Shown here piece after piece: positions 22,283-63,976 of a DNA stretch of 64,000 nucleotides. The stretch comes from a virus. Below the pieces are notes generated by a model that was not told the DNA's origin, did not search any database, and saw only the letters and a program-made list of their open reading frames with translations. The stretch's first letter is position 1. Each line of letters begins with the position of its first letter. Position numbers and translations under genes: made by a program. The stretch lies in the IMG/VR virus record IMGVR_UViG_3300031992_000044. One strand, 5' to 3'.

Positions 22283-22283
22283 A

Positions 22284-31396: not shown

Positions 31397-32278
31397 ATGG
31401 AAAACTCTAAAATTTTTATGTTCCCTGAGAACGGGACAAAGAGCTCTATCGATCCTACTCTGCTTGCTCTGATGAACAACAATGGTGGTTTCGGTGGTAA
31501 TAACTGGATATGGATTCTCTTCCTCTGGCTCATCTGGGGAGGTTATGGAATGAATGGTTTTGGCGGCATGGGAGGCTTCGGAGGTAATGGCTACTTCGCT
31601 AACCAGCTTGCTAATAGCGAAGGTAGAGATCTTCTGCTGCAGGCTATAAATGGTCGTGCAGATGCTCTCGGACAGCTTGCTAGTATTACTAATAGTAATG
31701 TAGAACAAGTATAGGCCGCTGTCAACACTTTGAATACCAGCATCCAGAATGTAGGCTCTCAGGTTGGTATGTCTAGCTTACAGGTAACCAACGCAATTCA
31801 GAGTGGTAATGCTTCTTTAAGCCACCAACTCTGTGAGTGTTGCTGCGAGAATCGTCTGCTGACAACTCAGCAAGGTTATGAGAATCGCATCTAGACCATT
31901 GAGCAGACCAATCAGCTTGGTTCTCAGGCCGACCGCAATACACGGTCAATAACAGACGCTATTGCGAATCTCCAGACCAACATGACCCGTGAGTTCTGTG
32001 ATATTCGTGAGCGTGAAATGCAAAGTAAGATTGACACACAGAGTGATATTATCACTCAACTGCGTGGTCAGCTGGATAATGATCGTCAGACAGCACAGCT
32101 GTTTAACGCTATTAATCCTCTGCAGGCTAAGGTTAATGAGATTGCTAACAAGCAGCCCAACACTGTGCCTGTTGTATGGCCTAACTTAACCGCAGTTAAC
32201 AACACTCCTTACGCAGCTGGAGCTTTATATGGCTTTGGTTGGAATAATGGTTGGGGTTCTAACAGCTTTTGGAATTGA
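31397..32278 (+). CDS. Hypothetical membrane/Gly-rich protein, 2 in-frame TAG (293 aa)
   Basis: Track ORFs 31346..31714 and 31982..32278 share frame 2. The gap is open except for TAG at 31712 and 31892. N-terminus has WIWILFLWLIWGGYGMNGFGGMGGFGG. Confidence 0.75.
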
Positions 32279-32297
32279 TTGAGAAAGGAGGTAGACT

Positions 32298-32654
32298 ATG
32301 TTTGGTACTACTAATTATCCTTTTAACTTTGCCAATCGCCGTGGTATACCTATGATTGAGAGCAGTGGCGTTACAGCTACAACGGAGAACGTTACTATTG
32401 CCCTCCCTAATAGAGTATTCAGATGGCTTAATGACAAAGGGGTAATCCTTTTTAGGCTTTGCCAAGTAATTCCAGAAGCATCAGTAGATCTTCCTATAGT
32501 ATTTACATCTAATGATTTTACACAGCCTCTCACCCTTGCTGGTGGCGATCCTGCTACAGGTGCAAATGTTATAGGTCCTGGTGTATACCTGATCTACTAT
32601 GATAAAGATGCTAACTTAATGCAGCTCCTTACTATGGCTGCTAGTTCTAACTAA
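32298..32654 (+). CDS. Hypothetical protein (118 aa)
   Basis: ORF-track ORF, preceded by AAGGAGG 7 nt upstream. Confidence 0.75.
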   Translation: MFGTTNYPFNFANRRGIPMIESSGVTATTENVTIALPNRVFRWLNDKGVILFRLCQVIPEASVDLPIVFTSNDFTQPLTLAGGDPATGANVIGPGVYLIYYDKDANLMQLLTMAASSN

Positions 32655-32666
32655 TATTAATTAACT

Positions 32667-33200
32667 ATGTTTTCAGCTTTACGTCAAGGAGCTCCCCTTT
32701 ATATATTAAATAAGGTGGAGAAACCCGAGCTAAAAATCGGGTATGTTGAAAGTGTGACGCAGCCGCGTCCTAGATACGCCACTTATAATCCTACTGTTAG
32801 CTTTGGTACTAATATGGAATAGATAGTAGATGTTGTCGTAAAAGTAGGCACAGATAAACTAGAATATTCTGGTGTACCAGCTAATGCATCTATTCATGAG
32901 TATAACAAGATAGTAATCAGTGAGAGTAGAGAAGCTATGATCTCTGAAGTCGATGGTATGCTCTAGAGTAGTAAGAACGTCTTAGATAACGTAGATTATC
33001 ATCAAGATATTATAAAATCGTGTGAGGATATTCTCAAATAGCTTAACCCTACTTACGCAAAAGAGCAAGAGAGGGATAGTGCTATAGAAGATCTAACAGC
33101 ACAGGTAAATAAAATATAGACTGAGTTTGGATCTATTAAAGGTACTCTTTCAAAGATAGAAGGGCTCCTGACTAGAACTGAGAACGTCCAAACAGTATAA
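32667..33200 (+). CDS. Hypothetical protein, 4 in-frame TAG (177 aa); invisible in the ORF track
   Basis: Hand translation from the ATG at 32667 is open to TAA 33198-33200 apart from 4 TAGs. All fragments are shorter than 60 aa. It fills an otherwise empty 530-nt gap. Confidence 0.65.
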
Positions 33201-33202
33201 TT

Positions 33203-33475
33203 ATGGTGATGATTGAATTTAAAGAAGCAGCCGTTGATAAAGTATTCAACCTGCTTGAGGAGTCGTTTGAGCACAACAAGAATCAAAAGATGATTCTATG
33301 TGAGCTTTATGATGTTCTTGAAGATGCTATGAAAGATCATGGCGATGAAGACAAGATATCAAAAGGTATCATGGGTCTTCGTGAATCTAGAAGCGGTTAC
33401 CGCTCTTCTATGCATGGTGGCTATAAACGAGGAATGCGCGATGACTATCGTGAGGATAATCGTTATGCTTATTGA
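33203..33475 (+). CDS. Hypothetical protein (90 aa)
   Basis: ORF-track ORF. Confidence 0.7.
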   Translation: MVMIEFKEAAVDKVFNLLEESFEHNKNQKMILCELYDVLEDAMKDHGDEDKISKGIMGLRESRSGYRSSMHGGYKRGMRDDYREDNRYAY

Positions 33476-33550
33476 TCGAAGATAATAACAGTGGGGGTCA
33501 GGGGATACTTGATCCCCATTTGTTTTTGTATAACTTAAATATTTATTATT

Positions 33551-34371: not shown

Positions 34372-34453
34372 TAAAATTCGCCTATCTACCGACGAACTTG
34401 CAATCCCACCTTTTAGGGAGCATTATAATAATGCTAAGGATAAAGCAATTGCG

Positions 34454-34870: not shown

Positions 34871-34878
34871 TATACAAC

Positions 34879-36503: not shown

Positions 36504-36510
36504 TTAAACT

Positions 36511-39258
36511 ATGGCAGTATTAAGATATTTTCATCAAGACCCCAGACAAACATCTGTACAAGAGTCATCAGTAATAGATAAACAAGGTACTGTATTAACA
36601 CAGAAGTTAACTACTATAAATCAATCTATAACTAACAATACACAAGTTTTAGAAGATAAGTAGAATAGTGTACCAGGTAAATCTCTTTCTACTAATGATT
36701 TTACGGATGAATATAAGAACAAACTTAGAGGAATTGAAGAAGGAGCTGAGGTTAATGTACAATCTGACTGGGGCGAAGATGACAATACTGCAGATAGTTA
36801 CATTAAGAATAAGCCTACATCACTACCAGCTTCAGATGTATATGATTGGGCTAAACAACCAAACAAACCGTCTTATAACTTAGATGAGGTTCCGGATGGT
36901 AATATAAGAAAGCTTAGTAATTATATACCATTAGCCCAAAAAGGTATATATGGCGGTGTAGCTACATTGGGAGCTAATGATGGTAAAGTGCCAGAATCAC
37001 AGCTTCCCAGTTATGTAGATGATGTATTAGAATATACAAATAATAGTCAATTCCCTGTTATAGGAGAAAGCGGTAAGATATATGTAAACACTACTACTAA
37101 TCTTACTTATAGGTGGACTGGTACGTAGTATACAGAGATAAGTCCGTCTATAGCCTTGGGGGAAACATCATCTACAGCTTATGCTGGAGATAAAGGTAAA
37201 GCTCTTGCGGATAGTTTATCTTCTTTGACAGGTATAGTAAACGATACGCAAGATTATCAAGATACATTAGATTGGAACACTAGAGTAGCTATAGCTAAAA
37301 TAAATGGTACAGAGATAACAGCTAAGTTGCCGTCAAATCCCGACACATGGAGGCCTATTAGTGATTCTATCAATACTGTTAGTTCTACAATATCTGCATC
37401 ACTTACTGCAGTAAAGGCTGCATATGACTTAGCTGCAAGTAAGACATCGAATACTGGTACAGTAACGTCAGTAGGATTAACTGTACCGACAGGATTATCT
37501 GTATCAGGTAGTCCAGTAACTACATCTGGCACATTAGCTATTACATACGCTAGCGGATATTCTATACCTACTACAGCTAAATAGGATGAGTGGGATGCTA
37601 AGCAGAATGCTATATCAGATCTATCTACTATACGTACCAATGCCAGTAATGGTAATACGGCATACGGTTGGGGCAATCATGCTAATGCTGGGTATTAGAT
37701 GGCTATATCTGATTTGGCCACTATTAGAGACAGGGCCGATGAGGGTCATGTTGCTTATGGGTGGGGAAACCATGCTGAGGCTGGATATGTTACGTCATCC
37801 GGTGTGACATCTATAAAAATAAAAGCCACTTCCCCAATAGTTAGTAGCAGTTCTTCTGCCATAACTACAACAGGAACAAGATATATAGGTATAGCAGACG
37901 CATACGGAGATATAAAAAACCCATATGGTGCCAAAACGGCAAATACTATACTTGCTGGTCCGACTACAGGATCTGCTGCAGTTCCAACATTTAGAGAATT
38001 AGAACAATCCGATATACCAACTTTAGATTGGAGTAAGATAAATGCTACGGTATCAACCACAACAGTAGGATCCGCTTCGGCTAGTACAAATATATCTGCT
38101 GACGACATTACGGCATGGGATCCTGGAGCTACACCGACACTTGGAACCGCAATACCAGCAGATGATATAACTGCATGGGACGCCGGAAGTACTCCAACAT
38201 TAGGAACAGCAATAAGCGCGGATGATATTACAGCATGGTCTGCAGGATCACTGCCTACTTTAGGGACAGCAATATCTGCAGACGACATTACTGCTTGGAG
38301 TGCTGGAACGCTACCAACATTAGGCACCGCGATACCAGCTGACGACATAACAGATTGGACAACAAATGTACCTACGGAAGTTGTTCCAAATACAGTTGTT
38401 ATAGGCGGAAGTACTACTAGTATACCAAATATATCTAAGAAGACTGTTGTAACAAGCGTAACAAAGAAAACAGTCGTTACTGGCGGTAGTACTACAGATG
38501 TGCCTAATATTAGTAAAAAGACAGTAGTTACCGGAGGTAGCACAACTGATGTACCTAATATATCTAAGAAGACTGTTGTTACCGGTGGAAGTACAACAGA
38601 TGTTCCCAATATATCTAAAAAGACCGTAATAACAAGTGTATCGTTATCTGGTGGCATACTTACTATAAACACTGGTGATAGTGTAACAGTTGGTACAGCT
38701 ATAAAGGCATATACCACTCTGAATACTGGCGACAGTGTTACAGTCGGCACACCTATAAAAGCTTATACTAGTCTTACTACTGGAGATTCTGTAACGGTGG
38801 GAGATCCTATAAAAGCGTATACAAGTCTAACAACAGGCGATAGTGTCACAGTATCAACGGGCGATAGTGTAACTGTCGGAGCCGCTATAAAAGCGTACAC
38901 GTCTTTAACCACAGGTCCTGCCGCAACAGTTACTGCTGGCACAGCAGCATCTCTTGATTATAGTGCCAAGTCTATACCAAACATTACTGGTGTTGGTACA
39001 CTACCGTCGTTGTCGTATACTTCGCGTAGTATACCAAATATTACTGGTGTTGGTACTCTCCCATCACTGTCTTATACATCTAGAAGTATACCTAATGTAA
39101 CAGACGTAGGTACTGCCCCATCTCTTACTTATACAGCTAAATCTATACCTAATGTAACTAGTGTGGGATCTACCCCAACACTAACTTACGCATCTCGTTC
39201 TATACCAAATATATCAGTAACAAATAAAACAGTAGTCACAGGAATAACTACACCATAA
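36511..39258 (+). CDS. Tail fibre protein, 4 in-frame TAG (915 aa)
   Basis: ATG 36511 is in frame with track ORFs 37156..37584 and 37699..39258. TAGs lie at 36661, 37126, 37582 and 37696. Fibre motifs VQSDWGEDDNTADSYIKNKP and GKIYVNTTTNLTYRWTGT. The C-terminal half is built from four tandem repeat arrays. Confidence 0.85.
38092..39215 (+). repeat. Four successive in-frame tandem repeat arrays inside the fibre gene
   Basis: 60-nt units (ISADDITAWxAGxxPTLGTA, x4.5). 51-nt units (GGSTTDVPNISKKTVVT, x4). 54-nt units (TGDSVTVGxxIKAYTSLT, x4). 57-nt units (SRSIPNITGVGTLPSLSYT, x4.5). Confidence 0.85.
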
Positions 39259-39268
39259 AGAAGATAAT

Positions 39269-42200: not shown

Positions 42201-43231
42201 CATCTATACCTTCAAGAACAATATGGGGGCAATCATTCAATGGAACTGCAAATGTAAATGGAACGTTCTATTTTACTAATGGAGATGCAACTATGAAAAT
42301 ATATGGTGCGCCATCTACTGTCGAGTCTTACGGTAACGAAAGAGTTGCAATACAAACATCATTTGATATGCAAGATCCAGAAACATCTTCTTATCCAACG
42401 AATTATCCTACCCGTGCGGCACTACTTTTGCAACCAAGAGGAGGCTACGTGGGCATAGGTACTACATCTCCATCCACAAGGATGCATGTTGTAGGCAGAG
42501 TGACGTGTGAATATAGTAGTGCATATTCTGGTTCATTTAGTGCTATTCGTGATGTCTATGAAGGATGTTTTGGAATAAATAGTTCCGGTTATACACTTCT
42601 TACTACAAATAAAGTTGGTGATTCTAGTGCAAGAGTTAGAATATCATTAAGTCCTCATACTATTACAAACAGCAGAATTATTTTGAATGATAATGTAGAA
42701 ATGTCTAATGGTAGTGGTATATATTAGGCATCATCTTATAGTTCCAGTAGTGATCCTTTTTATATACAAAACCACGATTTGTATGATAACGATGTTTCAA
42801 TAGGACGCCCTGGAGATTCAGGAAAACCTTGGGTTGGTATAGGTATACGGAAACCGTCTTATAAACTGCATGTAAATGGAGCATGCGGAGCTACATCGTT
42901 TCCTAATACATCGGATATAAGATTGAAAGATATATAGTCAGAGTGGTTACCTAAACTGGAAGATATAGCAAACGCTCCATCATTCTTGTTTAAATGGAAT
43001 AATATAAAGGATGATACTGTTCATTTAGGTAGTAGTGCGCAATATTGGGAAGAAAAAGCTCCAAATGTAGTAACAGAAGCAAATGATGAAATAAAGACAA
43101 AATCGTTGCAGTATGATGTATTGGGAACTGTAAACAGTATAGCCATAGCAAAAGAAGTTGTAAGTTTAAAAGAAGAAATAAAGCTTCTGCAGGCTTAGAT
43201 TGCAGAATTAAAGTAGCTACTAAATAATTAA
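39269..43231 (+). CDS. Large tail fibre with a C-terminal intramolecular chaperone (peptidase S74-like) domain, 5 in-frame TAG (1320 aa)
   Basis: Track ORFs 39269..39586, 39764..42727 and 42986..43198 share frame 2. Gaps are open except for TAG. The C-terminus YKLHVNGA...TSDIRLKDI...HLGSSAQYWEEKAPNVV...LQYDVLGTVNSIAIAKEVVSLKEEIKLL matches the S74 pattern. Modules are duplicated internally. Confidence 0.85.
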
Positions 43232-44856: not shown

Positions 44857-46899
44857 ATGGTAGACTTTAATAAAAAGATTCTAAATAGTTCAAAGTTCCG
44901 CTAGCCAGCTATATTCTTTAAAGAGCATGGATGTTATACACTGGCTCCGCGTGGAACAACCGATTATATACAATATTGGGATAGAGAAACACAAAGGTGC
45001 ATAAACGGATATGTAGCACCTGATGGCGACGCTATTACAGGCTACCATTATTTTTACCTAAACTATAGTCCTATTATGAAGTTGGAGGAAACTAAGTATA
45101 CAGATAGGTACGGAAACGAACGTACCAGAAGAGAACGTGTACTTAATTTCCCCGACTTCTGGGATTATGATTATTACTACTTCAATGCGATAGAAGAAGC
45201 CGAAAACCAAGGGAAACACATGGCAACCCTTAAATGCAGACAGAGAGGTTATAGCTTTAAAGGGGCTAGTATGCTGGTGCGAAACTATGAACTCATCCCA
45301 GGATCAAAGAATTTCGCAGTAGCTTCTGAGTAGAAGTTTCTTATAGGAGATGGACTACTTACGAAAGCTTGGTAGATCATGGATTTCGTAGACAAGCACA
45401 CAGCATGGTCTAAACAACGTCTAACATCAACCCGTATGGAGCGTGTATCTGGTTACAAAGTCACAGATGAATTTGGTAAACAGACAGAACAAGGATATTT
45501 GAGCTCTATTACAGGTATTACACTAAAGAATGACCCAGAACGTCTTCGTGGTACTCGTGGTAAGCTTGTGCTATTTGAGGAGTGCGGTAAGTTCCCCAAC
45601 CTAGAAACAGCATGGCGTGTTGAACAACCTGCTGTAGAAACTGACGACGGTGTGGCATTCGGTTTGCTTTGTGCATTTGGTACAGGTGGTACTGAAGGAG
45701 GTAGCTTTGATGGTCTAAAGAATCTATTCTATAAACCAGATGCATTTAATGTATTATCTTTCGATAATATATGGGATGACGGATAGGAGAATACTAAATG
45801 TGGATTCTTTGTACCAGCGTGGAGTAATATGGGTCCTGAGTTCATGGATGAAGACGGTAATAGCGATAAAGATAGATCTATAGAAGAATTAATGGTATAG
45901 CGTAACAAAGTTAAAGATGGAGGCGCTACACAGACATCTATAGATAGGTTTATCTCAGAACGTCCTTTAAAGCCACAAGAGGCTGTCTTAGAGCTTGGAA
46001 GAAACATATTCCCTAGAAAGCTATTGATGGACCAGCTAACCCGTATCAGAACCAATAAGAAGCTTTAGAATATGAAACATATTGTAGATCTTCTATGGGA
46101 CGGTAAAGGTGGTGTTGAAGCAGTAGAAAAGAAATCTGGAGATATAACTACTTATCACTTAAAGAAAGATGACAAACCAAAAGGATCAGTAGTTATCTGG
46201 GAATACCCAATCACAGATCCCCCATTTGGATTATACATTGGCGGCTGCGACCCGTATGATCATGACGAGTCGTTCACTAACTCGTTAGGATCGACGTTTA
46301 TTTTTAAAAGAGTTAGAGCTGGAGAGGCTTGGAACGATGTAATAGTCGCAGAATATACTGGGCGACCAGATACTGCTGAAGAATATTACGAAAACGTGCG
46401 TAAACTATTGATATTCTATAATGCACGTCTGTTGTTTGAGAATGAACGTAAGGGTATCTACCCTTACTTCACAAACAAACACTGTGATTATCTTCTTGCA
46501 GATTAGCCAGATAAAATAATTACGGAAGTCTTTAAAGACAGTAGAGTACAGCGCCGCAAAGGCTGTCATATGACTAAATAGATTAGGGCGTATGGAGAAG
46601 GATTAATCCTCGAATGGCTTATGGAAGAGTATGAAGAAGGGCATCCTAATCTAGAAAGAATATACAGCGAACCTTTGATAGAAGAGTTAATAGAAAACGA
46701 CGGTGAGAAAAACGTAGACCGTGTTATTGCTATGTGTATGGTTATGATATATAGAGAAGAACTATATCAAGTTAAAGTGTCCGCTGCAAAAGAACAAAAC
46801 AAATAGGTTGAACTCTTCGAACTACCTTTATTCAGTTAGCGATACTGGGATGCTGATGAAGAGGTAGTGCAAGACAACATACCTGTATTTAACTTTTAA
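44857..46899 (+). CDS. terL: Terminase large subunit, 10 in-frame TAG (680 aa)
   Basis: Four track ORFs (45076, 45379, 46072, 46621), all in frame 1. Gaps checked: only TAG. Motifs CRQRGYSFKG (Walker A-like), KLVLFEECGKF (Walker B) and GGCDPYDHD (nuclease). Confidence 0.85.
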
Positions 46900-46902
46900 T
46901 AT

Positions 46903-49392
46903 ATGGTTAGAGTAGACGATAATTTATATAACGTATCATTTCCCCAATAGAAACTACCACTAAAAAAGAAAGACGAATAGTGGCAGCATGATTGTGTAAA
47001 CTGGATAATCGGCGAGGGGAACGTTGCGTCTGGAGGTATGAATAAGACGCGATTCGGAGAGATACAAACCTACTATAATCTTTATAATTCTATATTTGAT
47101 GAAAAAGACTTCAAGCGTATTACGAACCCATTTAAGGTAGAAGATGGGTTCCCCGCTACTCCTCAAGATTTCAATATAATTAGGCCTAAGGTAGACCTCC
47201 TTATAGGTGAAGAGACAAAGAGGCCAATGAACTTCAGGGTGGTGAGAACGTCGTAGGAAGCCGCTTCAGAGCTTATGGACAGAGAGAAGGAGATGCTCAT
47301 CCAATATATTATGGCATCTATTACTTCTCAGATGGGTCCTGAAGAAGCACAATAGTTTTAGCAATAGTTACAGTCTGGCGAGATAATGCCTCCTGAAGCT
47401 ATAGCTAAATATATGTAGAAAGATTATAAAGATGTTATAGAAAACACAGCATATCATACCCTCACATACTTACGAGAAAAACTAAACTTGGACAATGAGT
47501 TTATCAAAGGCTGGAAAGATGCTCTTATTGCAGGTACTGAATTCTATTATGTTGGTGTAATGAACGATGAGCCGTACATGGAGAGAGTGAACCCAGAATA
47601 CTTCGATTATGATCATAGTCCTGATCTAGAGTTTGTAGAAGATGGTTCGTGGTGCTGTCGTAGAATGAGGATGCCTGTGGCTGAGATATATGACCGTTAT
47701 TATAATAAGCTTAGCGAGAAAGACTTGAATAAGCTTAACGAGATGATGGGTAGCAGACACGCTAATGATCTTGGTGATAGACCTCCTGTAGATAACTTCG
47801 GTGGTGGTATACAATTCCATATCTATGATAATCCTACTATGGATTAGAAGACTAGATATGCTATAAATGTATGGCACTGCTGTTGGAAATCTTTCAAAAA
47901 GATATACTATGTTACATACTTCGATGAAGCCGGTCAGGCACAAGTAGAAATTATGGACGAGTCTTATAAGAAGACAGGACAGGAGATATCAGTTGAACCG
48001 GACTGGATTATAGAAGTTTGGGAAGGATACCGTGCAGGATCTGATCTTTATTTTGGTATTCAGCCTATTGAGTACCAGCATGTATCAATTGATAACCCTA
48101 ATTCTCAAAAGCTTCCGTATTGCGGATGTGTCTACTCTAATACCAACAGTAGGCCACGTTCTCTTGTAAGTATACTTAAGCCTCTACAGTATATGTATAT
48201 TGTATTGTGGTATAGACTTGAGTTAGCTATAGCCAGAGATAAGGGAAAGGTAGTAAACATGGATATTACATAGATTCCTAAATCTATGAATATCACTCCT
48301 GATAGATGGATGCACTACTTGTCTTCTGTAGGCGTAAACTTTATTAATCCTTATGAAGAAGGTTGGAACATCGCAGGTAGAGAAGGCGGAAAGCCTGCTA
48401 CGTTTAATTAGATCACTGCTCTCGATCTTACTATGTCGAACGTAATCGCTGAATATATTCAGCTGATGGATAAGATTGAGCAATTGGCTGGTACTATATC
48501 AGGTATTACAGAACAGCGTGAAGGCGCTATTAGTTCTAATGAACTTGTAGGTAATGTAGAACGTAGTGTTGTACAGTCTTCTCATATTACTGAGCCTTTG
48601 TTCTGGGCTCACAACCAATGTAAGCGTCATGTACTTAACATGTTGTTAAATACAGCTAAAGGGGCATGGTAGCAGACAGGTAAGAAGAAGCTTAGTTATA
48701 TCTTCGATAATGGAGAACGTGCTTTTGTTGATATCCAAGATAAATTCTACTATGAAGATATGGATGTGTTTGTAAGCGACACTTCTAAAGACATGGAAAA
48801 CATTTAGAAGTTGCAGCAACTTATTCAGCCGGCTATGCAGAATGGTGCTAGCTTGCTTGAAGCAGCTGAGGTACTTACCAACGATAACTTCAACATCATC
48901 AAGCAGAAGCTTCTAGAGATGCAGCAACGTCAAGAACAGCAAATGCAACAGCAACAAGAAGCTGAGCAACAACAAGCTATACAACTGCAACAAATGCAGA
49001 ATGAAGCTCGTGAACAAGAACTTATGCTTGAAGAGGCTAAGATGGAGCTTGAGCGTTACAAGATCGATGCTGACAATTAGACTAAGATTGCGGTTGCTGA
49101 GATATCTACTTATCGTGGTACTGAGGAGAAAGATATCAATCAGAACAATATCCCAGATCCGCAGGAAATGTACGATATTGCTATTCAGCAGTAGAAGCTG
49201 CAATCCGATGCTTATACGAAGCGTTACGAAGCAAATCAGAAGAAGAATATAGAAGACAAGAAGATTGAGCTCGAACGTGAGAAGATGAAGCACGAGATGG
49301 CACTACAGAAGCAGAAGGATGACGCGGCTCTTGAGCGTGAGAAGGTTAAAGGGCGCTACGCTCTTCGTAACAAAACATCGGGAGAGCGATGA
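46903..49392 (+). CDS. Portal protein, 14 in-frame TAG (829 aa)
   Basis: Five track ORFs, all in frame 1. Every gap was read and contains only TAG. It follows terL directly. Size and the Q/E-rich C-terminal tail are typical of large podophage portals. Confidence 0.75.
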
Positions 49393-49562
49393 CGTACGCT
49401 GAAGAACAAGAGCTTCTATAGCTTACTAGAGAGAACAATCAATTGTTGAAACTTATACTGAGATATGTTTGGCATGATGGAGGCGATGATTTCATTACCA
49501 ACATCATTGCTAACATAATCGGTAATAGAATAGATCCTGCTTATGTATAGAGATCCAAGTGA
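49389..49562 (+). CDS. Possible small protein, 2 in-frame TAG (57 aa)
   Basis: Its ATG overlaps the portal TGA (ATGA). Open to TGA 49560-49562. Confidence 0.4.
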
Positions 49563-51531
49563 ATTTAGAGAGCGCTTTAAGGCGTATAAAGAAGGTAAAT
49601 CTGTACGAGAGATCTATGGATTGTCTGGGTATGCTGGAGGTAAAAGTACTATTGAAGACACCGCCGATTTTCTTAAACAGTATGAAGGGTTTAGAGATAA
49701 AACATATCTAGATGGAAAGGGGATACCCACTATTGGATACGGTTTTACGGATGCTAAATTTGTAAACAAAGGAAGAATAACAAAGGCTGAAGCGGATGCT
49801 GAGTTAAAAAGACAAATCGCATTTAGATAGGCAAAACTTAGAAAGAAACTTGGTCCTGCAGTGTGGGATTCTTTATCTAACGACAGTAAGAAAGCTCTCA
49901 CGTCGTATCATTATAATTATCCTTCCGGATTTGAAGATGATACCAAGTTTATGAAATATTGGAGGTCTGGACAGTATGCAAAAGCTATAAAAGAAGTAGA
50001 TGCAGGATGGAACGATTCTGCAAATCCAGGGCTTCGTACACGTAGAATGAAAGAGTAGTAGTTACTATTTTCAGACCCTGTACTTGGAGGTTTTATTGTT
50101 CCAGAAACAAAACCTGAACCAATTATAGCTATGCCAGACGCTACTAGAGTATCTACTATTCCTACTATACAATAGAAAGCTATAGATTATTCTGATCGTA
50201 GAAATGCAGTAGCCGCTGAAGCGGAGCGTGCTATGTGGGCTCATAATGTAATGGAGGATATGAAAGGTGCTTATCAAGTACCTATCTGGGAATCTCCTTC
50301 ATTACCAGCATTGACTCCTGTAGAGTATGATGTTACTCCTTTGAAGACATACGCTGGTGGTAAAGTTTCAAATGAACCGGTAATAACTCAAGGACGTGCT
50401 GGTAGTAGATTGGACAAACTCGACAGAATGATGGATCCGGACGAAGACGACGGTGTGGCAACTAGAGTGGCAAAGAAAATAGGAAAAGGTATTACATCTA
50501 TCGCACAAGATGCAAAGAAAATATTTGGATTAGAAACAGTAGATAGATTTGCTACTCGCACACAACGTCCAGAAGATTATGTAGACGCAGCATTCCTTAC
50601 AGTAGGTAATGCTATCATATCTAAAATAATGAAGTCGTCTTCTAAGGCGTTCATAAAATAGTTCGTAATGTCTTTTGATGATATGGATGCTAGAGCGATT
50701 GGAAAATATTTCTTTTAGGAGCATCCAGAATTAATGACACAACCGCAAGAAGCATGGTATGGAGAATTAGCTAAAAAATCAGATTCATATTTTCGTTAGG
50801 CGATAGATCACAGAGTCAAAATGTTTGATCGAGAAGGAAGACCTCTCAGCCCAGAAAGTATAGCAGCTTAGATCAGTCCTGATATCAAAATTGCACCAAT
50901 TAAAGGAAGTCGCTATGGGGGAATTTATTCTGCTCCCGATAATACTATGCTCGTCAATAGTGATCTTGTAAAAGACCCAAGAACTGCTGCTAAAGTATAT
51001 AATCACGAACGAGCTCATGCAATGCAAACAGCGTTTGAGAATGAAGTAGGATTGCCGTACCCGATTAGATACGGTACAGAAATGGAAGCTTTATTCCCGT
51101 TTACAGCAGAGCAAAAGGCGAAACGTCCAGGCGTGCATATAGGTAAAGAAATTGATGCTTCTTTACACGAAGTTAAATCATTGCGTTCGTATGACACGAA
51201 TCAACTAGGTAGAGCGTTAGATGTAGACTTTGAAAATATGTCTGATGAAGAGTTTAAACAATATGCGAATAATGGTTATTTCAAAGATATAATGCAGAAT
51301 ATCTAGAACGGACTACAAGCACAAAAGAAATTTATAAGCAAACTTAAGGACGGCAAGCTACCTGGATATAGTAACGGCAAAATAAGAATTAAACCGGCTA
51401 ATCTCGGTAAGTTTAATGCTACTAAAAAACGTACCGGTAAAACAACAGAAGAACTTACACACAGCAAAAACCCGCTTACTAGAAAACGCGCAATATTTGC
51501 ACAGAATGCTAGAAAGTGGAATCACAAATAA
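49543..51531 (+). CDS. Virion-associated multidomain protein: GH24 lysozyme domain plus HExxH zincin domain, 9 in-frame TAG (662 aa)
   Basis: Track ORFs 49543, 49861, 50233 and 50947 all lie in frame 1. Lysozyme motif FLKQYEGFRDKTYLDGKGIPTIGYGFT. Zincin motif NHERAHAMQ. Tandem TAG-TAG at 50056-50061. TAA at 51529. Confidence 0.8.
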
Positions 51532-52772: not shown

Positions 52773-54296
52773 ATGAATAATACTTTACTTAACAATCTCC
52801 AGCTGTACCGTGGACGTCGTTTCTCGGACCTGGTAGATGAAAACATGATTTCTAACGCCCTGCTGACTAGACCTCATGAGGTGTCTGGTCTGCTTTCACT
52901 GGTATTTGGTACAAAAGACGATGGTGTTTCTACTACTATCGATCTGCTCACCGGTGGTCTTGGCAAGACAATGATTATTGATAACCGCGAGTTTGAGTGG
53001 GCTGTCCAGGTTGACAGCGAGCACGCTATTAACATTCGTTGGGCAAAGTGGAACGGTAAGGAGATTACCTCCGCTAACTATATTTCTGAGACTCCTGGTC
53101 TGAATGGTACTCCTATCTACCTCGCTCTTGAAGAGCGTTGGTTCGGTCCTGGTGCAATTCTGTCATTTGACGATTACAAGTTCCAGGTTCGTGTAAACGG
53201 TGTTCCTTATCAGGACGGTAGCGCTTGGGTATATGAGGTATATGTTGTTGATGGAGCACAGGCTGCTTACATCCCCGGTGAGTTCCTGCTTCCTGGTCGT
53301 CAGGTAAGCCGTTTGGGTTCTGCTTACGAGGAGTACAGTGATGAGGCAGATATCATCAACTACCAGACTCCGTTTAAGATGCGTGGTCATCTGCAGACTC
53401 TCCGTCTGACTTATGATATTACTGGTGACGCATATTCAACGGTTCTGGCTATTGCTCTGCAGGATCCCGAGACTGGTAAGAAGAGCTATCTCTGGGCCGA
53501 TTATCAGTACTGGCTCGCACTCCGTGAGTGGAAGAAGCGTGAGGAGTATCAGCTGTTGTTCTCTAAGAGCAACCGTCTGGCTGATGGTACTTATCTTAAT
53601 AAAGGGACAAACGGCAGACCCGCACCTACGATGAGTGGTTTGTTCGAGCAGATTAGCCCGGCTAACATTCGTTACTATCATCACCTGACAGCTGAGCTGT
53701 TCGAGGATTATCTCTTCGACCTCTGCTACAATATCCTTGGTACCAATGAGCGTCGTTTCGTTGCTCTGACTGGTGAGATGGGTATTCGTGAGTTCGACCG
53801 TATCCTGAAGGAGAAGGTTGCTAGCTTCAATATGTGTGAGAATATCTTCGTTACCGGTAGCGGTCAGAACCTGACTCTCGGTGGTCAGTTCACTACCTAC
53901 AACATGACAAACGGTATCACGCTGTCTCTGAAGCGTTGTCCTTTGTTCGATAACATGGAGATGTTCCGTCAGCTCCATCCGCTGACTGGTAAACCCCTGA
54001 TGTCTTATACGTTCCTGTTCGTCAATATCAGCAACTTCGACGGTCAGGCTAACGTTGTTAAGGTTTGCCGCAAGGGTCGTGAGTTTGTTCAGTGGTACAC
54101 CGGCGGTTCTGTTTCGCCTCAGGGTTATGCAAACAGCATTAACACTCTGCGTTCTAACAGCCGTGATGGTTACCAGGTTCACTTCCTCGGTGAGGAGGGT
54201 ATTATGGTTCGTAACCCGCTGAACTGTGGTATTCTGTACTGCGACGCTGAAGATACCGAAATCTGCAACGACGGCGGTATTAATGTCGGTGCGTAA
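52773..54296 (+). CDS. Major capsid protein candidate (507 aa), no TAG
   Basis: Single uninterrupted ORF with strong GC3 and preferred-codon bias. It follows the scaffold-like gene and is followed by a GC hairpin. Confidence 0.7.
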   Translation: MNNTLLNNLQLYRGRRFSDLVDENMISNALLTRPHEVSGLLSLVFGTKDDGVSTTIDLLTGGLGKTMIIDNREFEWAVQVDSEHAINIRWAKWNGKEITSANYISETPGLNGTPIYLALEERWFGPGAILSFDDYKFQVRVNGVPYQDGSAWVYEVYVVDGAQAAYIPGEFLLPGRQVSRLGSAYEEYSDEADIINYQTPFKMRGHLQTLRLTYDITGDAYSTVLAIALQDPETGKKSYLWADYQYWLALREWKKREEYQLLFSKSNRLADGTYLNKGTNGRPAPTMSGLFEQISPANIRYYHHLTAELFEDYLFDLCYNILGTNERRFVALTGEMGIREFDRILKEKVASFNMCENIFVTGSGQNLTLGGQFTTYNMTNGITLSLKRCPLFDNMEMFRQLHPLTGKPLMSYTFLFVNISNFDGQANVVKVCRKGREFVQWYTGGSVSPQGYANSINTLRSNSRDGYQVHFLGEEGIMVRNPLNCGILYCDAEDTEICNDGGINVGA

Positions 54297-55944: not shown

Positions 55945-56771
55945 CGTTAGATGAAACAAGACAAATGGGTATTGAATTCGAAAGACGAGTTCAAACCATG
56001 ATTCCTGAGAAGGAATTATTAGAGAAGCTTGATACTGAGACGATCTACTCGTTCCTCAATCAATATCAAGACAAATATATACACGATATTTATCGTAGCC
56101 TTGATGCTATTCCATCTGGTTCTAAGATCTCTGCACATGTAGAGAGTGTATTGCAATCGTTGTTAAAACGCGATTGGATACCGGTTACGGATCCGGGCGT
56201 AATAAACGCAACAAGCAATCTTATTGATCCAAACGGCATTGAGGTTATGAATACCGGTAGATCTGTAGTATATCCATTGAACCCCTTATTTTACATGTAT
56301 GTCAGAAGTGTATCAAAAGTCACTAAAACGTTTAGTTTTAGATCTGATAAAGCAAATAATAACAGCTCTATCAGAGTTTTGCCGAACGAGTTGGTATCAC
56401 AGTCCGATGCCTGGACTTTAATAGAAACTCCTCACGATACACTTAGGATATTACGTAGACCGGCTGCAGTGTTGAGTAATACCGTTGCTGATACAAACGG
56501 ACAGAAAGAAGGACAAAGTCTTACTGTAATATACGATCAGTATACTGAACCTCTTGGTATAGAGATATTATACTACAAAGAACCCGCTCATTTTGATCTT
56601 ATGACTTCTACTGCATGCGAACTTCCTTTAGATTGCTTCGACGATATTGTTACAGGTGCACTTGAACTCTATATTCAATATGTATCTGGTGCAGAAGCAA
56701 ATAGACGTAGACAGCAGGAGGCTATGAGACAGCAAGCTAGACAACAGAATAACGATAATGAGAACAGTTGA
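55941..56771 (+). CDS. Hypothetical structural protein (276 aa), no TAG
   Basis: ORF-track ORF. Confidence 0.75.
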   Translation: MTLDETRQMGIEFERRVQTMIPEKELLEKLDTETIYSFLNQYQDKYIHDIYRSLDAIPSGSKISAHVESVLQSLLKRDWIPVTDPGVINATSNLIDPNGIEVMNTGRSVVYPLNPLFYMYVRSVSKVTKTFSFRSDKANNNSSIRVLPNELVSQSDAWTLIETPHDTLRILRRPAAVLSNTVADTNGQKEGQSLTVIYDQYTEPLGIEILYYKEPAHFDLMTSTACELPLDCFDDIVTGALELYIQYVSGAEANRRRQQEAMRQQARQQNNDNENS

Positions 56772-57447
56772 TTTAATAGCAGCTTTTGAGCTTGAGATAA
56801 ATAAACTAGATAATTCTTTGCAAAAGCCTGTTACAGACGATTCGCTGTTCTGGATTAATCAAGCTGTTATTAAGTTTGTTAAAGATCGGTTTAATGGAAA
56901 TCCTCCTAAGAAGACTTCCTATGAGTAGAATGAAAAACGTACTAGAGATTTAATAAGATTATATAGAACTGGTACAAACTATAAATTTCGTAAAGACTTT
57001 AGTCATGTTAACTATAATAGTTATTCTTACTGCTATCCACAAGACATGATGTTTGTACTTAATGAAGATGTTGTTATAACAGATATGGATGGTGACCATC
57101 AGATGGATACGTGCGTATTTGAATGTACAGCAGATAGTTTTATGTATAGAATAAACAATAGTCTTACTGATTTTCATTATAAGTATCATAGAGCTCGTCC
57201 TCTTAGAATAAGAACAAGGAATGGATTTCGTCTGTTAACAGACAAGAATTATAAGATATACTCCTACACTTTAGGTTATCTTAAAGTGCCGGAAGAAATA
57301 ACTAATCAAGATCCATATAAAGAGTACAAGGATTTTGATGACTATATATGGTTAGAGATAACTAAGATCGCAGCACAGATGTATGTGGAGAATCAATCCG
57401 ATCCTAGATATAAAACTCTAACAAACGAAGTACTCACTTAGGAATAA
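56758..57447 (+). CDS. Hypothetical structural protein, 2 TAG (229 aa)
   Basis: ATG 56758 is in frame with track ORF 57046..57441 through TAG at 56926. The terminal sequence is TAG-GAA-TAA. Confidence 0.7.
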
Positions 57448-58654: not shown

Positions 58655-58684
58655 TAAACAAAACATATAAAACTGGCTGGGGTG

Positions 58685-58719: not shown

Positions 58720-58724
58720 GCAAT

Positions 58725-60095
58725 ATGAGAAAAATAAGAATAGGTAACGATATTAGGCTTATTCTGAATATCAATACGACATCTACTATCATCGAAGATG
58801 ATGGTACGCAGTATAACATTACTGTGAACGATTTAGATATGACTAATATCAAACAAGTAAGGTGTTACTTAATTAACACCTCTAAGGAGGAAGATCGGAA
58901 GAAGTTTAAACGTGTTGGTTTCCCAGAATTCTATAATCCTACAGCATATAATATAAATAATGCAGGATTCCCTAGTTATCATATGGAGCCAGCAAATGTT
59001 TGTAACTACGATAGATTTGCTCCAGATTTTCACGATTTTCATTGGTGGCCTGGTTTCCGTGGATTCGGTATGTATCCAGAAAGATTCCACGATCATTGCG
59101 GTCATGTACTCTGGCATGGTCCTCATCCAGAACACAATCATTTCCCTGATCATTGGTACCTTGCTGACTCATGGGTATTAAATGAAAAGAATACGCTCGC
59201 ATGCATGTTCCCGGCTATTGATCAGATAATGTGTGGTACATATAAACTTGTTGTAGTAATAACAGTATTCCAAAAAGGTTGGGGTAAACATAATCTTCGT
59301 ACTTATACAATAGACAAAGGTGATATATTCCAACTTGTAGACGAAGGTGGTGAATCCGGTCCAGTAACAATCGATGTTGATACTAAAGGCGATGATAGGA
59401 AGAATATGCCTGAGATAGAAGCTATTTATACTACACAGTTTAGTAATGAATGTTATACTCTTGTTATGGGCCAAGATCTTAGAATAGGTGAACAAGATGT
59501 TAACGAAAGTGAATATCGTATTTACGTCAAGCTTAAGGATGGCAGTACATTACTGTATAATCCTCTTGATTGGAAGTATGATAATCTTAATTTCGAATCT
59601 CCAAGCTGTGCTGTAACAGTAGATAAAAATGGTACTCTACATGCACATTGCTTGACAGATCCTATATGCATCACAGTATCGTACGGAGAAGGTCGTAGTA
59701 AGGTACAGACTTCATTCTGTGTTAAAGTAGATCCTGTCATTCCTTTGTATGTAGGTTTCTCTACAGACGGATCCTTTAACAACATTAGTAAAGATAAAGA
59801 CAACTGGTATAAAGGAGATAGCATTTGGAATGTCAAGAAACGTCAAGCATTAGATGGTGTTATTGATATCCATAATCCGCTTTGTGGAGGTTACCTGTAT
59901 ATCATGTCTCAACGTAAAATAAAATACATTAAGTCTTTTGGAGAAGATATTGTTTCTTCAAGTGTAAGATTTCCTGTAGTTCCTGGCAACAAGAAGGTAG
60001 ACAACTACTTTGTATATCGCAGCGTAGCTCCTATTGTAGGTGGTGGTGCTATTCCTACAGGTAATGATGTTAAATTTAAACTTGTATACGCATGA
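58725..60095 (+). CDS. Hypothetical structural protein, His/Trp-rich segment (456 aa), no TAG
   Basis: ORF-track ORF. Confidence 0.75.
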   Translation: MRKIRIGNDIRLILNINTTSTIIEDDGTQYNITVNDLDMTNIKQVRCYLINTSKEEDRKKFKRVGFPEFYNPTAYNINNAGFPSYHMEPANVCNYDRFAPDFHDFHWWPGFRGFGMYPERFHDHCGHVLWHGPHPEHNHFPDHWYLADSWVLNEKNTLACMFPAIDQIMCGTYKLVVVITVFQKGWGKHNLRTYTIDKGDIFQLVDEGGESGPVTIDVDTKGDDRKNMPEIEAIYTTQFSNECYTLVMGQDLRIGEQDVNESEYRIYVKLKDGSTLLYNPLDWKYDNLNFESPSCAVTVDKNGTLHAHCLTDPICITVSYGEGRSKVQTSFCVKVDPVIPLYVGFSTDGSFNNISKDKDNWYKGDSIWNVKKRQALDGVIDIHNPLCGGYLYIMSQRKIKYIKSFGEDIVSSSVRFPVVPGNKKVDNYFVYRSVAPIVGGGAIPTGNDVKFKLVYA

Positions 60096-60841
60096 ATTGT
60101 AATTGTTGTAACTGTTCAAGTAACAGTGGCTGTGGAGATAACAGCGAAATCAAAATATATGGCACGCTTGTAAATGTTACGATCGACGATAAGTTGAAAG
60201 ATGCTAGAGATGAATAGCATGATCCTTGTAAAGCCAAGAATTGGCCTAGTAACGTAACAGAAGAAGGACATAATGGTGCGCTCGCATATGCTTATCAACT
60301 GCATGACGGTAGATTTAGGCAAGATGATCCAAATATGAAAGAGTGGGAACGTTTTCAAGATGAAATCAACAAACGTGTTACAGATATTATATATGACGAG
60401 ACCGGTGGTAACGTTAGTGACGAGCCGATAACAATCATAGAGAACCCGTTTACGCATGATGATAATGGTAATCTTGTACCAATTGGTGGAGAACCGTATG
60501 ACGATAAGTGGTTGAAGGGTGAGAACACAGACGGTAAGGATGGTATTATAGGGGCAAATCCGGACAACTATGACGATCGTAAGGATGAACTGAAAGCTGT
60601 ACCTCTTTATCCAAATGGTGGTAATACTCCTGTATTTAAAGATAATATTATTGATTTTATCCTTAATCTTGCTGCAGAAGTGAATGATTTAAGAAACAGG
60701 ATCATTGCACTTGAAGACGGTGATACAGATACCTGTTTGTGGACAACTTCTGGAGATGGAATATGCCCAAAGAATAGTAACGCTAAAGTATATAGCGATC
60801 AGGGTTTCTTTGACAGAAGCTTGAATAACCCGCAATCATGA
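60092..60841 (+). CDS. Hypothetical protein with a Cys-rich N-terminus, 1 in-frame TAG (249 aa)
   Basis: ATG 60092 (ATGA overlap) is in frame with track ORF 60335..60841. TAG at 60215. N-terminus MNCNCCNCSSNSGCG. Confidence 0.7.
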
Positions 60842-61245
60842 CGTTATTGTTGAAGAGAATTGCTCTTAGAGATACTTACACAATAGGTAAACTTTACATA
60901 GATGGTATATATTAGTGCGACACAGTAGAAGACAAAGTGCGCAACTTAGACAAAGAAAAGAAAGTATATGGAGAGACAGCTATTCCGTATGGGACATATA
61001 AAGTAAGCTGGACATATTCTCCTAAGTTTAAGAAATATATGCCTCTATTAGAAGATGTGCCACATTTTGCAGGTATACGAATACACTCCGGTAATACAGC
61101 CAAAGATAGTCTTGGCTGTATTATAGTCGGAGAAAATAAGCAAAAAGGAATGGTACTTAACTCTAGAGCTACAGTAAATAAACTATACCCTTTGATTAAG
61201 AAAGGATGTCTTTCTAAAGAAGGATGTAAAATAATAATATAGTAA
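60838..61245 (+). CDS. DUF5675-like putative cell-wall hydrolase, 2 TAG (135 aa)
   Basis: ATG 60838 is in frame with track ORF 60937..61242. The pattern GKLYIDG..C.T.ED...GETAIPYGTYKV...SPKF...LPLL..VP.F.GIRIHSGNT..DS.GCI.VG matches my recollection of DUF5675. Confidence 0.55.
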
Positions 61246-61246
61246 T

Positions 61247-62833
61247 ATGTTAAGAATGATAACTTACGGAGATCTACCAAATGGGGACCCGGGAATGAAT
61301 ACTCTTCTCATAAGTGCAGAAATACCACCAGAGAGATGTGTGTCTAAATACGTTGCTATATATAACGGAACCGACACAGATAAAATGAACGAATTTGCTA
61401 CGGCAAACGGAGGTGTTGATAAATTTCCAGATACCAGACTTGTACCGGTATGGCCAATTGAAGAAAGTAGTTATAGCAAAATGTGTACATATCCATGCGA
61501 CTCTAGTCGTATGAGGGTTGGAAGATAGCAGGGGCAACCGGATAATCCAACAGGAGACGCATATTTAGCTGGTTATGATTATACATTCGAAAATGTTCCA
61601 GATTGGTTAACTATAACTCGTCGCAGTACTACAACATTTCATACAAATGCCGGTTATGTATGGGATGATGGAATAACAATAACAGCGCAAGCTCTTTCTG
61701 ACGGTGAACCTGATAGATATGTTTATATCACAGTAGTCGCTAAAGAGAATAGTGAAACAATGGCTGCGGCTAGAATATATGCGCAACAAAATAATGCATA
61801 GGTTTGTGAAACAGTATGCGAAAAATCTAAAATCCTTATATACCAAAAAGCGCAAGGTGCTACTGGAAAGTAGTTTGTTGGAGTTGATAAATTAACGTTA
61901 ACGGCTACATCATCCACCATAGAAAATAACACGCGAATAAATCTTGCTGCAATATGTACAGAACAAAATTTATCAGGTACATGTTTTGCTAATGGTACAA
62001 TATTAGGTCAATCTGCAGGAGAGTATTCTTCTATTGCACGTGTTTCTGGAACTGGTGTTGAAGTAAACATAGCGCAGATAAGAAGTAAGTTTGATCCGTC
62101 TCGTACAGCAAATGTTACGTTCCTTATATATGGTACATGGGAGGGAGCCGGTAGTACTTCTAGAAAAATACCTGTACCGATAAGAAGTTCTTATAGAGTT
62201 GATGTTTCTGCAAATAGAGAAATAGTTGAAAGTACAAGGATGATATCTTGCGGAAATATGAATATCTTGGAAAACGATATCGATTCTAAGAATCCAGATA
62301 TATCATAGCGTTCTACAATTACACAAAAAGTTGCGGCACGTTGTGCATTAGTTGCAATAATTGGATATAATTTAACAACAGATACAGTCACAGTAACGCT
62401 TGGTAATGATACGGTAGACGGAGGAATATGTCCAATATTCTATCCTACTACATATTCAACAAACGGAACTTCTGGTTAGTTTACTTGGCTTGGAAGCGGA
62501 TCTAGTACATCTCGTTTATTCCAACCTATAAATATGTCTGCATCTGAAGTAACAGTAAACGTTGAATCTACAAATCTTGGAAGCAATACTGCATTTAATA
62601 TTTTAGTTGGTGAAAATTCTGCGTTGGATTCTTATACAGTAAACGGAACCACAATAACTACATCACAAGGTGTGGATATATCTAGCGGGTCATTTACTAT
62701 AGATTTGAGTTCATGCGCTGCAGATACCACACATAGATTTAGATTGCGTCAGATAATACCCGATGTAGATATTAATAGCGGAAACTCTTCTCCAGAATAC
62801 GCCGATATAGCATTTACAATTGTAAACCAATAA
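61247..62833 (+). CDS. Hypothetical protein, 5 in-frame TAG (528 aa)
   Basis: Track ORFs 61247..61528 and 62534..62833 share frame 2. The whole gap was read and contains only TAG. Confidence 0.75.
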
Positions 62834-63372
62834 TGATTAAGCACTTGTCACAAACACTATAGCACATAGGTACTGCGATAAACAGTATAACACAAGGCAG
62901 TATAATCGGTAAATGGGCAGTGGGGTTAATGTCAGCAGTAGCTGCATTTATAACCCCTATATAGTATTTGTTGATGATATGCTTCGCCGCTACTATCGTA
63001 GATATGTTTTGCGGGTTTAGGGTGGCTAGGAAGTTTAAATAGAAGATAGAAAGCGGTAAGAATTGGTCTGGTACGCTTAGAAAGCTTATAGACGAATTTA
63101 CAATACTTTGCTTAGCACATGGCTTAGAATGGGCTGTAATGGATGAGAGTGGAGTATTTGTACTTACCGGAGGTGCCACAGTCATTATTACGTTGACTGA
63201 GATGTGGTCAATATTAGAAAATCTAAATACTGTAGATCCAAACGGTCCTTGGAGGATGCTTGGTAAGTTCCTTAAGAAAAAGGGCGAGGATTATACTGGC
63301 ATAGAATTAGACGAAGATGAACATACTGACGATCATACCGTGGGTCATAAACCACGGAAGAAGCGCCATTAA
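62833..63372 (+). CDS. Holin (phage_holin_4-like), 3 in-frame TAG (179 aa)
   Basis: ATG 62833 (TAATG overlap) is in frame with track ORF 63139..63372. TM segments are present. Motif ITLTEMWSILENL. Basic C-terminal tail. Confidence 0.65.
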
Positions 63373-63976
63373 GGCCATTTGCGTGGCTTCTGTTGCGTTA
63401 TTACTGGCGTGGGGTATAAATACCCACAGACAGAATATAAAGCTGTCACAGGAGCTAGAAATGGCTCAGAACAACATTGAAGCCTATTAGGGGTTGGTTG
63501 CCGACTCCTAGTAGGCTAATAATGTTTTAAGGCTAAACATAAGAGATTTGAAGGACTAGAATGACAATATACTACACAAGCTAGATAGTGTCAGGTCTAA
63601 GTTGAGTATTAAACCAAAACAAGTTTAGGCGGCTGCAACGCAAACGCAGTCTATAAACGTTATAGAGAGTAAGGGGGTAGGGGGTGATATTATATCTATT
63701 AAAGATAGTATATACAACGATACAATAAACTTCAACGACCTTACAACAGTAACTTATAGTATTAGTAAAGATACAGTTAGTATAGGCTTAGATATTAGGA
63801 ATGAGCAATATCTATATGTATTTGATACTAAAAAATATAAGAATAAGAAGAGTTTTATAAAGCGACTACTAACATTTGACTTTAAGAAAGTACATAAGAC
63901 AGAGTATAAGATAGAGAATACGAACGACTTGATTAAGACAACTGATGTAAGAGTAGTACAAAATACAACGAAATGA
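63317..63976 (+). CDS. Spanin-like (Rz-like) protein, 5 in-frame TAG (219 aa); start embedded in the holin 3' end
   Basis: ATG 63317 in frame 2. N-terminal TM AIKAICVASVALLLAWGI followed by a coiled-coil-like region. Read codon by codon to TGA 63974-63976. Includes tandem TAG-TAG at 63509-63514. Confidence 0.55.

Follow-up and report, generated by a model that had tools for sequence, protein, structure and literature searches.

Sequence evidence that a crAss-like phage decodes TAG as glutamine in its virion and lysis genes

We analyzed a stretch of 64,000 nucleotides (the window, 64 kb) of the IMG/VR virus record IMGVR_UViG_3300031992_000044, in which TAG appeared to be used as a sense codon. 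We conclude, with a probability that we put at about 93%, that the window is part of the ~98-kb genome of a crAss-like gut phage that decodes TAG as glutamine (Gln, Q) in its virion and lysis genes; about one third of this genome lies outside the window. Leftward genes extend from ~1572 to 28276, and rightward genes from 28403 to the end of the window. The late genes, on the + strand, are continuous only when TAG is read through, and a phage-encoded tRNA with anticodon CUA, tRNA(CUA), probably decodes these codons.

Reassignment of TAG to Gln, mostly in late genes and together with suppressor tRNAs, has been described for crAss-like phages belonging to groups Beta, Delta and Zeta (Yutin et al. 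2021, PMC7886860), and metaproteomics has detected Gln at TAG in two crAss-like phages (Peters et al. 2022, PMC9523058). One of the validated phages is a 94-kb member of the Suoliviridae (according to the review PMC10136315), for which Gln-at-TAG peptides came from capsid, portal and tail proteins. Judged from the nearest matches of the terminase large subunit (TerL), portal and major head proteins within the 64 kb, the phage analyzed here belongs to the Crassvirales, family Suoliviridae, subfamily Oafivirinae (the “Delta” group). The phenomenon is already documented and proteomically validated for the Suoliviridae, and the window represents a further member. The original prediction, made from the DNA letters alone, was right in attributing the pattern to the code-15-type recoding of gut phages, which is published for this group (PMC7886860, PMC9523058).

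The DNA encoding TerL and the portal protein (44857-49392) gave full-length blastn matches of 72-75% identity to cr273_1, cr272_1, Bohxovirus and cr124_1. No GenBank phage record exceeded 80% identity in this TerL and portal region; closer relatives, with 88-99% protein identity, are known only from metagenome assemblies. The best six blastn matches showing family-level taxonomy are all Suoliviridae, of which the four obtained with TerL and portal are Oafivirinae and the two that the tRNA retrieved are Loutivirinae.

TAG as a glutamine codon in the late genes

The late module and the genes within it that bear on the decoding of TAG are as follows (aa, amino acids).

31397..63976, + strand: late (virion and lysis) module; 28 tiled genes, 77 in-frame TAGs, all ends TAA or TGA
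32667..33200, + strand: gene unseen in an open reading frame (ORF) track with a 60-aa limit; 177 aa, TAGs at codons 52, 100, 125 and 151
36511-39258, + strand: large fibre-like protein; 4 TAGs
39269-43231, + strand: large fibre-like protein; 5 TAGs
44857..46899, + strand: TerL; 680 aa, 10 in-frame TAGs
46903..49392, + strand: portal protein; 829 aa, 14 in-frame TAGs
49543..51531, + strand: protein with a lysozyme domain and, towards the C terminus, an HExxH region; 662 aa, 9 TAGs, two of them in the tandem pair at 50056-50061
52773..54296, + strand: major head protein; 507 aa, no TAG; matches phrog_11589 over residues 4-490
60838..63976, + strand: lysis-type cassette of four genes
60838-61245, + strand: DUF5675 protein of the cassette
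61247-62833, + strand: BACON-domain protein of the cassette
62833-63372, + strand: holin (Phage_holin_4_1) of the cassette
~63317-63976, + strand: membrane/coiled-coil protein of the cassette

When only TAA and TGA were taken as stops, the + strand from 31346/31397 to 63976 resolved into 28 consecutive genes that lie a few bases apart or overlap slightly. These genes contain 77 in-frame TAGs with the likelier ATG starts (31397 and 63317), or 79 with the longest-ORF starts. Neither TAA nor TGA occurs in frame in any of their 10,665 codons; read in the other two frames, these genes contain 865 TAA, 630 TGA and 511 TAG triplets. ORFs of at least 100 aa on the + strand cover 61% of 31397-63976 under code 11 and 97% when TAG is sense, compared with 64% and 69% in the controls in which TGA or TAA, respectively, was made sense; coding density, which had been proposed as a check, rises only with TAG. 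Across the module, TAG makes up 19% of all Gln-type codons. Its placement along the genes is uniform (Kolmogorov-Smirnov test, p=0.78), and analysis of the TAG context in the late genes revealed neither a +4 bias nor an enrichment close to gene starts. Ten of the 28 genes have no TAG. TAGs are found in the same genes of independently assembled sequences, several of them at identical codons.

What the original prediction had read from the sequence was confirmed almost completely. It had counted about 75 in-frame TAGs, and more than 20 + strand genes whose gaps contained TAG only. Its TAG counts for TerL, the portal, the lysozyme protein and the two fibres (10, 14, 9, 4 and 5) were exact, as were the numbers of code 11 fragments of at least 60 aa, each ending at a TAG (four for TerL, five for the portal), and the tandem TAG-TAG pairs are indeed present at 50056-50061 and 63509-63514. 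Its statement that no late gene stops at TAG holds in part. The 28 genes end at TAA (16) or TGA (12), but the absence of TAG-terminated genes arises partly by construction, because only these two stops were allowed. In gene 60838-61245, TAG is the final codon before TAA, and gene 56758-57447 ends in TAG-GAA-TAA; judging from these endings, TAG may be the actual stop in both.

Single proteins and domains run straight across the TAGs, which is what the prediction had expected of profile (HMM) searches. PHROGs matches name TerL (phrog_6681, one stretch over residues 24-651, spanning 8 of the 10 TAGs), the portal (phrog_6547, one stretch over residues 10-804, spanning all 14) and the TAG-free major head protein. 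The portal also aligns in one stretch (11-795) to gp20 of ΦcrAss001 (PDB 7QOG); this phage has been cultured, and the structure of its virion is solved. TerL and portal are each annotated as a single coding sequence (CDS) in the RefSeq relatives, where these CDSs hold 4-15 TAGs; homologues are thus single genes, whereas the prediction would have been contradicted by separate ones. Because of its four TAGs, all pieces of gene 32667-33200 are shorter than 60 aa, which explains its absence from the ORF track, as had been noticed; the joined protein matches phrog_28898 in a single stretch over residues 1-151. A match to phrog_16490 likewise crosses TAGs as a single stretch.

In the lysozyme-domain protein, PF00959 is complete (1-125/125) at residues 45-171, across TAG codon 96, and full-length single-gene homologues exist. 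The tandem TAGs at 50056-50061 stand directly after this domain, at the junction to the long C-terminal region bearing HExxH. A short product with the lysozyme domain only would still require suppression, because codon 96 lies inside the domain. A tblastn search of phage records with this protein was uninformative, since the search breaks at the TAGs of recoded relatives.

The lysis-type cassette behaves in the same way: matches to Pfam PF18925, PF13004 and PF05105, and also to phrog_1501 and phrog_199, cross TAGs. In the TAG share of Gln codons, three of its four genes rank within the top five of the 28 (0.67, 0.60 and 0.38), and the share in the BACON-domain gene is 0.25. All 19 Gln codons of the major head protein are CAG, with no CAA and no TAG. 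Together with the phage's own tRNA-Gln(CUG), this looks as if the most abundant protein were tuned at the level of codons.

Both fibre proteins are 100% identical at the aa level in the metagenome contig ERZ27257202 k141_1411036 (L004), with a TAG at every corresponding position. Elsewhere in the part compared with this contig (window 34879-46899), TerL is 97% identical with three extra TAGs in L004, and an LRR-repeat protein has 316 aa in L004 versus 362 aa in the window, which points to mosaicism or recombination among strains that also differ in repeat number.

To identify the amino acid, we aligned the TerL and portal genes of five phages codon by codon. At columns with TAG in at least one phage, 74 of the 135 non-TAG codons (55%) are CAA (55) or CAG (19), two codons that together make up ~3% of codons in the late genes. 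The ΦcrAss001 portal has Q at the columns of window TAGs 16, 26, 635 and 726, i.e. at 4 of the ~10 alignable columns. Gln therefore dominates the TAG columns of homologues at the codon level as well as at the residue level, as the prediction had anticipated. Since relatives mostly carry CAA or CAG where one of them has TAG, these comparisons demonstrate, as far as alignments of DNA and protein can, both the recoding and its assignment to Gln.

Two meanings of TAG and the timing of recoding

Outside the late module, the following genes inform on the meaning of TAG.

12046..13911, - strand: gene with phosphoesterase-like motifs recognized by eye; 3 internal TAGs
13913..15163, - strand: gene of 416 aa; 3 internal TAGs
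27192..27719, - strand: gene of 175 aa; 4 TAGs
16697..17203, - strand: gene ending at TAG; TCA TAG TGG TAA in the window, TCA TAA CGG TAA in the L014 orthologue
24821..25438, - strand: gene ending at TAG; ...VPAV then TAG in the window, ...APAV then TAA in five orthologues
28403..31218, + strand: TAG-free head of the rightward unit; four small genes (28403-30262), the suppressor tRNA and a dUTPase
30664-31218, + strand: dUTPase (PF00692, 1.6e-18); no in-frame TAG

Pfam and PHROGs searches with ten leftward proteins gave matches only for an ECF-type sigma factor and the dUTPase. As this was too few, we used alignments with orthologues, including those in the relative L014, to determine the status of leftward TAGs. 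By this comparison, three leftward genes also need TAG to be read through. Gene 12046-13911, which has no Pfam or PHROGs match, has homologues in two other phages (L012 and L013) that are uninterrupted 637-aa ORFs aligning across the TAG at ...GDM-X-YNYQYYSPNSLIWLKE, and it shares two TAG positions with L014. The L014 orthologue of gene 13913-15163 runs on past the TAGs, with TAG/Gln swaps in both directions. In gene 27192-27719, the TAGs stand at shifting positions in five orthologues, aligned to Q, K and other residues. These three genes have 10 TAGs in ~1,200 codons, which is the late-module rate. The remaining leftward genes (~3,900 codons) have no internal TAG at all, where the late-module rate predicts ~28. 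Moreover, in genes 16697-17203 and 24821-25438 TAG aligns with the TAA stop of orthologues, which indicates that the genome carries both meanings of TAG; this orthology-based demonstration that TAG still means stop in two genes of such a genome may be new. The original prediction that TAG is sense in the late module is thus confirmed, with one refinement: recoding also reaches three minus-strand genes, and TAG ends at least two leftward genes. No relatives of gene 2375-3094 were found, and its TAG is either a stop or sense.

TAG is avoided by most leftward genes and terminates at least two of them, so the standard code would operate early in infection. This code suits most leftward genes and every gene in 28403-31218, which are free of TAG. 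tRNA(CUA) would then be transcribed from the rightward unit and accumulate. The host glutaminyl-tRNA synthetase (GlnRS) would charge it with Gln, as suggested by its weak first acceptor pair, its U35 and its similarity to phage tRNA-Gln(UUG), and the charged tRNA would compete with host release factor 1 (RF1) at UAG. Full translation of TAG-containing genes, i.e. those for virion proteins and the lysis cassette at 60838-63976, would be possible only after the suppressor has built up, which would time, at the level of translation, the production of structural and above all lysis proteins. The three leftward genes with sense TAGs would be under the same late control. We infer both this role of tRNA(CUA) and the timing.

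TAG might instead mean Gln all through infection, with the TAG-ended leftward genes simply receiving short C-terminal extensions. Backup stops lie only 1 and 18 codons behind the two TAG stops, and three leftward genes do contain sense TAGs, so this explanation has something to recommend it. It does not account for the ~3,900 leftward codons lacking internal TAG, the TAG-free genes around tRNA(CUA), or the placement of TAG exactly where orthologues have a TAA stop, and suppression is impossible until the tRNA has been transcribed from the phage. We therefore consider constitutive recoding rather unlikely, and favour recoding that sets in late.

The TAG at 10885-10887 (window 10807-10887, - strand) is conserved in L014 (6990-7075). 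Behind it stands an inverted repeat, GGGCTGT...ACAGCCC, that is conserved too; beyond the repeat, the window and L014 diverge. It may be a TAG stop with an RNA hairpin, or it may allow a read-through extension.

The phage tRNA with anticodon CUA

The suppressor and the two tRNA-Gln genes of the window are located as follows.

30567..30641, + strand: suppressor tRNA, anticodon CUA (ARAGORN; the label “Pyl” derives from the anticodon alone); Gln-like, with an atypical T arm
3543..3614, - strand: phage tRNA-Gln(UUG) (ARAGORN, Rfam); closest relative of the suppressor in the window
18536..18611, - strand: phage tRNA-Gln(CUG) (ARAGORN, Rfam)

The tRNA(CUA) gene, which the original prediction had not listed, is located upstream of the first sense TAG (31712), at a distance of 1.07 kb. 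It scores 31.7 bits with the Rfam tRNA model (gathering score 29), versus 53-67 bits for the other four tRNAs of the window. cr53_1 and cr60_1 have homologues with a CTA anticodon, annotated there as tRNA-Gln; others are carried by Dulem virus 42 and numerous IMG/VR contigs. The position next to the dUTPase gene is kept in relatives, including Dulem virus 42.

The tRNA of the window belongs to a sub-family, represented by at least 14 distinct IMG/VR sequences at 30 loci, in which the T stem has a 3' strand that is longer by one nucleotide, so that this strand has 6 nucleotides and the pairing is shifted by one position. With the shifted pairing, all 20 cloverleaf pairs are standard in all 10 distinct sequences examined. 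Among these 10 sequences, seven pairs are changed on both sides, a number reached by 0-1 of 500 shuffles; these double-sided changes are found in the acceptor stem (five of its seven pairs), the anticodon stem and the T stem (C48-G63 replaced by U-A). The anticodon loop, CUCUAAC, is invariant across the aligned sub-family sequences. Without exception, the acceptor stem opens with a weak pair, which is U·G (U1·G72 in the window) or U-A within the sub-family and U·U in homologues of the cr53_1 type. Within the window, tRNA(CUA) is closest to tRNA-Gln(UUG), with 46 identical positions versus 37-42 for the other tRNAs. It has U35; its discriminator, however, is A73. This conserved though atypical T arm may be a new element.

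Minimum free energy (MFE) folding of the tRNA(CUA) region gave no cloverleaf and was no better than shuffles (z=0.95). We set this result aside and relied on covariation, because single-sequence MFE is a poor test for tRNAs. A scan of 28100-31500 for sigma-70 promoters and terminators found nothing above shuffles; these phages and their hosts use other promoter types.

TAG could also be read independently of tRNA(CUA), by a host suppressor, by near-cognate tRNA-Gln(CUG) or by a factor encoded outside the window, tRNA(CUA) then being decayed or accessory. The irregular T arm, the low Rfam score, the MFE result and the presence of tRNA-Gln(CUG) and tRNA-Gln(UUG) in the phage could be seen in this light, and many TAG-recoded phages lack a detectable suppressor (PMC7886860). 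A decayed gene would, however, hardly be kept in the same atypical form in so many distinct sequences, with compensated substitutions in three stems (acceptor, anticodon and T), an invariant anticodon loop and a constant place beside the dUTPase. The 77 TAGs and the two tandem pairs also demand efficient decoding, which near-cognate reading is unlikely to supply. These considerations make decoding without the phage tRNA improbable.

Still less credible is that tRNA(CUA), or whatever reads TAG, inserts a residue other than Gln, such as pyrrolysine, Lys, Glu, Tyr, Leu or Trp. ARAGORN names the gene “tRNA-Pyl”, but this label reflects the anticodon only, and we saw no pyl genes. Relatives have K, E, R, A or P at some TAG columns; no alternative residue approaches the 55% of replacements that are CAA or CAG, the tRNA with its weak U1 first pair most resembles a phage tRNA-Gln(UUG), and metaproteomics within the same family gave Gln (PMC9523058).

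The possibility that the TAGs are real stops, and the late genes pseudogenes, split genes or assembly or sequencing artefacts, draws on the fragmentation of these genes under code 11 and on GenBank record PV686213, which annotates the homologous region as ten small hypothetical proteins, but it is refuted by the frame statistics (77 TAG, 0 TAA, 0 TGA), the independent assemblies sharing TAG-bearing genes with several identical codons, and the domains and solved homologue that align straight over the TAGs.

Some points nevertheless weigh against decoding of TAG as Gln by tRNA(CUA) in the late genes. The T arm is irregular and the Rfam score marginal, so that conservation and covariation have to speak for the function of the tRNA. 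No release factor, including RF2, and no GlnRS was found in the 64 kb, as an ORF of suitable size or a Pfam match. The early and late timing derives from gene content and strand, and recoding of the late module only is too simple a description, given the three TAG-containing genes in the leftward block. Finally, the enrichment of Q in database homologues (Q stands at most TAG columns, and for TerL it is the majority residue at 8 of the 10) is largely circular, since these proteins were called with TAG as Q: their DNA fails to give them under table 11. It is for this reason that we used the codon-level comparison and the ΦcrAss001 portal.

Relation to known systems and other features of the window

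The phage shares with the recoded phages of the Delta group (RefSeq cr273_1, cr272_1 and cr124_1) the family and subfamily, the TAG-bearing genes with several of their codons, and the concentration of recoding in late genes; with cr53_1 and cr60_1 of the Suoliviridae it shares suppressor tRNA(CUA) genes. It differs from the Delta-group phages in being another species or genus-level lineage and in having a tRNA of the sub-family with the extra T-arm nucleotide. The Suoliviridae phage validated by proteomics (PMC9523058) has a different genome, and here the recoding is known from sequence alone.

A model of timing and lysis control has been proposed for recoded phages (Borges et al., bioRxiv 10.1101/2021.08.26.457843), and the same study found that lysis genes are preferentially recoded in crAss-like phages of ~105 kb. 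Similarly, the structural and lysis genes of the window form one recoded unit, three of the four cassette genes are in the top five for TAG preference, and an element for the code change lies in standard-code sequence upstream of the recoded genes. Unlike in that model, no RF2 or aminoacyl-tRNA synthetase was seen in the 64 kb, three genes on the opposite strand are recoded, and orthology gives two cases of TAG as stop. The location of the tRNA upstream of all recoded rightward genes and the TAG-rich lysis genes fit the published idea of late and lysis timing. The genome is one more well-resolved phage with both TAG meanings, and it opens no new question.

In Escherichia coli, the supE (glnV) tRNA-Gln(CUA) is an amber suppressor that inserts Gln at UAG in competition with RF1. 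The window tRNA resembles it in its CUA anticodon, its tRNA-Gln-like body and its weak first acceptor pair. It differs in being phage-encoded, in having A73 rather than G73 and a non-canonical T arm, and in that it routinely serves at least 77 codons of the proteome, whereas supE is a mutant suppressor.

We also suggest, tentatively and as something that more probably does not hold than does, that a structurally aberrant yet functional tRNA, scoring just above the Rfam threshold, is the decoder here. If true, such atypical tRNAs could explain part of the ~60% of TAG-recoded genomes with “no detectable suppressor”, and this genome, with its two early genes that end at TAG and its tmRNA, would be a compact and testable model of a timed switch between two codes.

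For annotation, table 11 yields dozens of meaningless fragments, while table 15 restores TerL, portal, fibres, lysozyme, holin and other proteins. PV686213 (L002, Bohxovirus sp.) is an instance of the standard-code annotation error that still persists in GenBank: its TerL/portal region (1001-5507) appears under the standard code as ~10 small hypothetical proteins. Translation of this region with TAG as sense gave only one ORF of at least 300 aa, so that the record may hold frameshifts or another peculiarity.

Two late proteins of the + strand, encoded at 43244-44845 (MCNNNCCTCCQCG...) and 60092-60841 (MNCNCCNCSSNSGCG...), have unusually Cys-rich N-termini; no family match was found for either.

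The region from ~17900 to 27200 is ORF-poor, with short ORFs on both strands and gaps of ~1 kb (e.g. 18100-19100, 21200-22280 and 25440-27190). Apart from tRNAs, no Rfam family reached its gathering score there. In this respect it is like the regions of “short ORFs of different polarities” reported for some crAss-like phages.

The window also encodes a tmRNA of the permuted (two-piece) type, at 15288-15536 (- strand; ARAGORN span 15197-15577). It scores 49.4 bits with the Rfam model tmRNA_permuted (gathering score 47), and ARAGORN gives the tag peptide GDYNIVDYTGLKEAA*. RefSeq lists the homologues of this locus in cr272_1, cr273_1, cr131_1 and cr10_1 as SsrA, so a phage tmRNA is a known feature of relatives. 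As a speculation, the tmRNA might relieve stalling that results from read-through of TAG stops.

The ECF-type protein of the sigma-70 family is encoded at 10213-10788 (- strand). It matches Sigma70_r2, Sigma70_r4_2 and Sigma70_ECF with E values of 1e-6 to 1e-12, and is conserved at 78% in L014.

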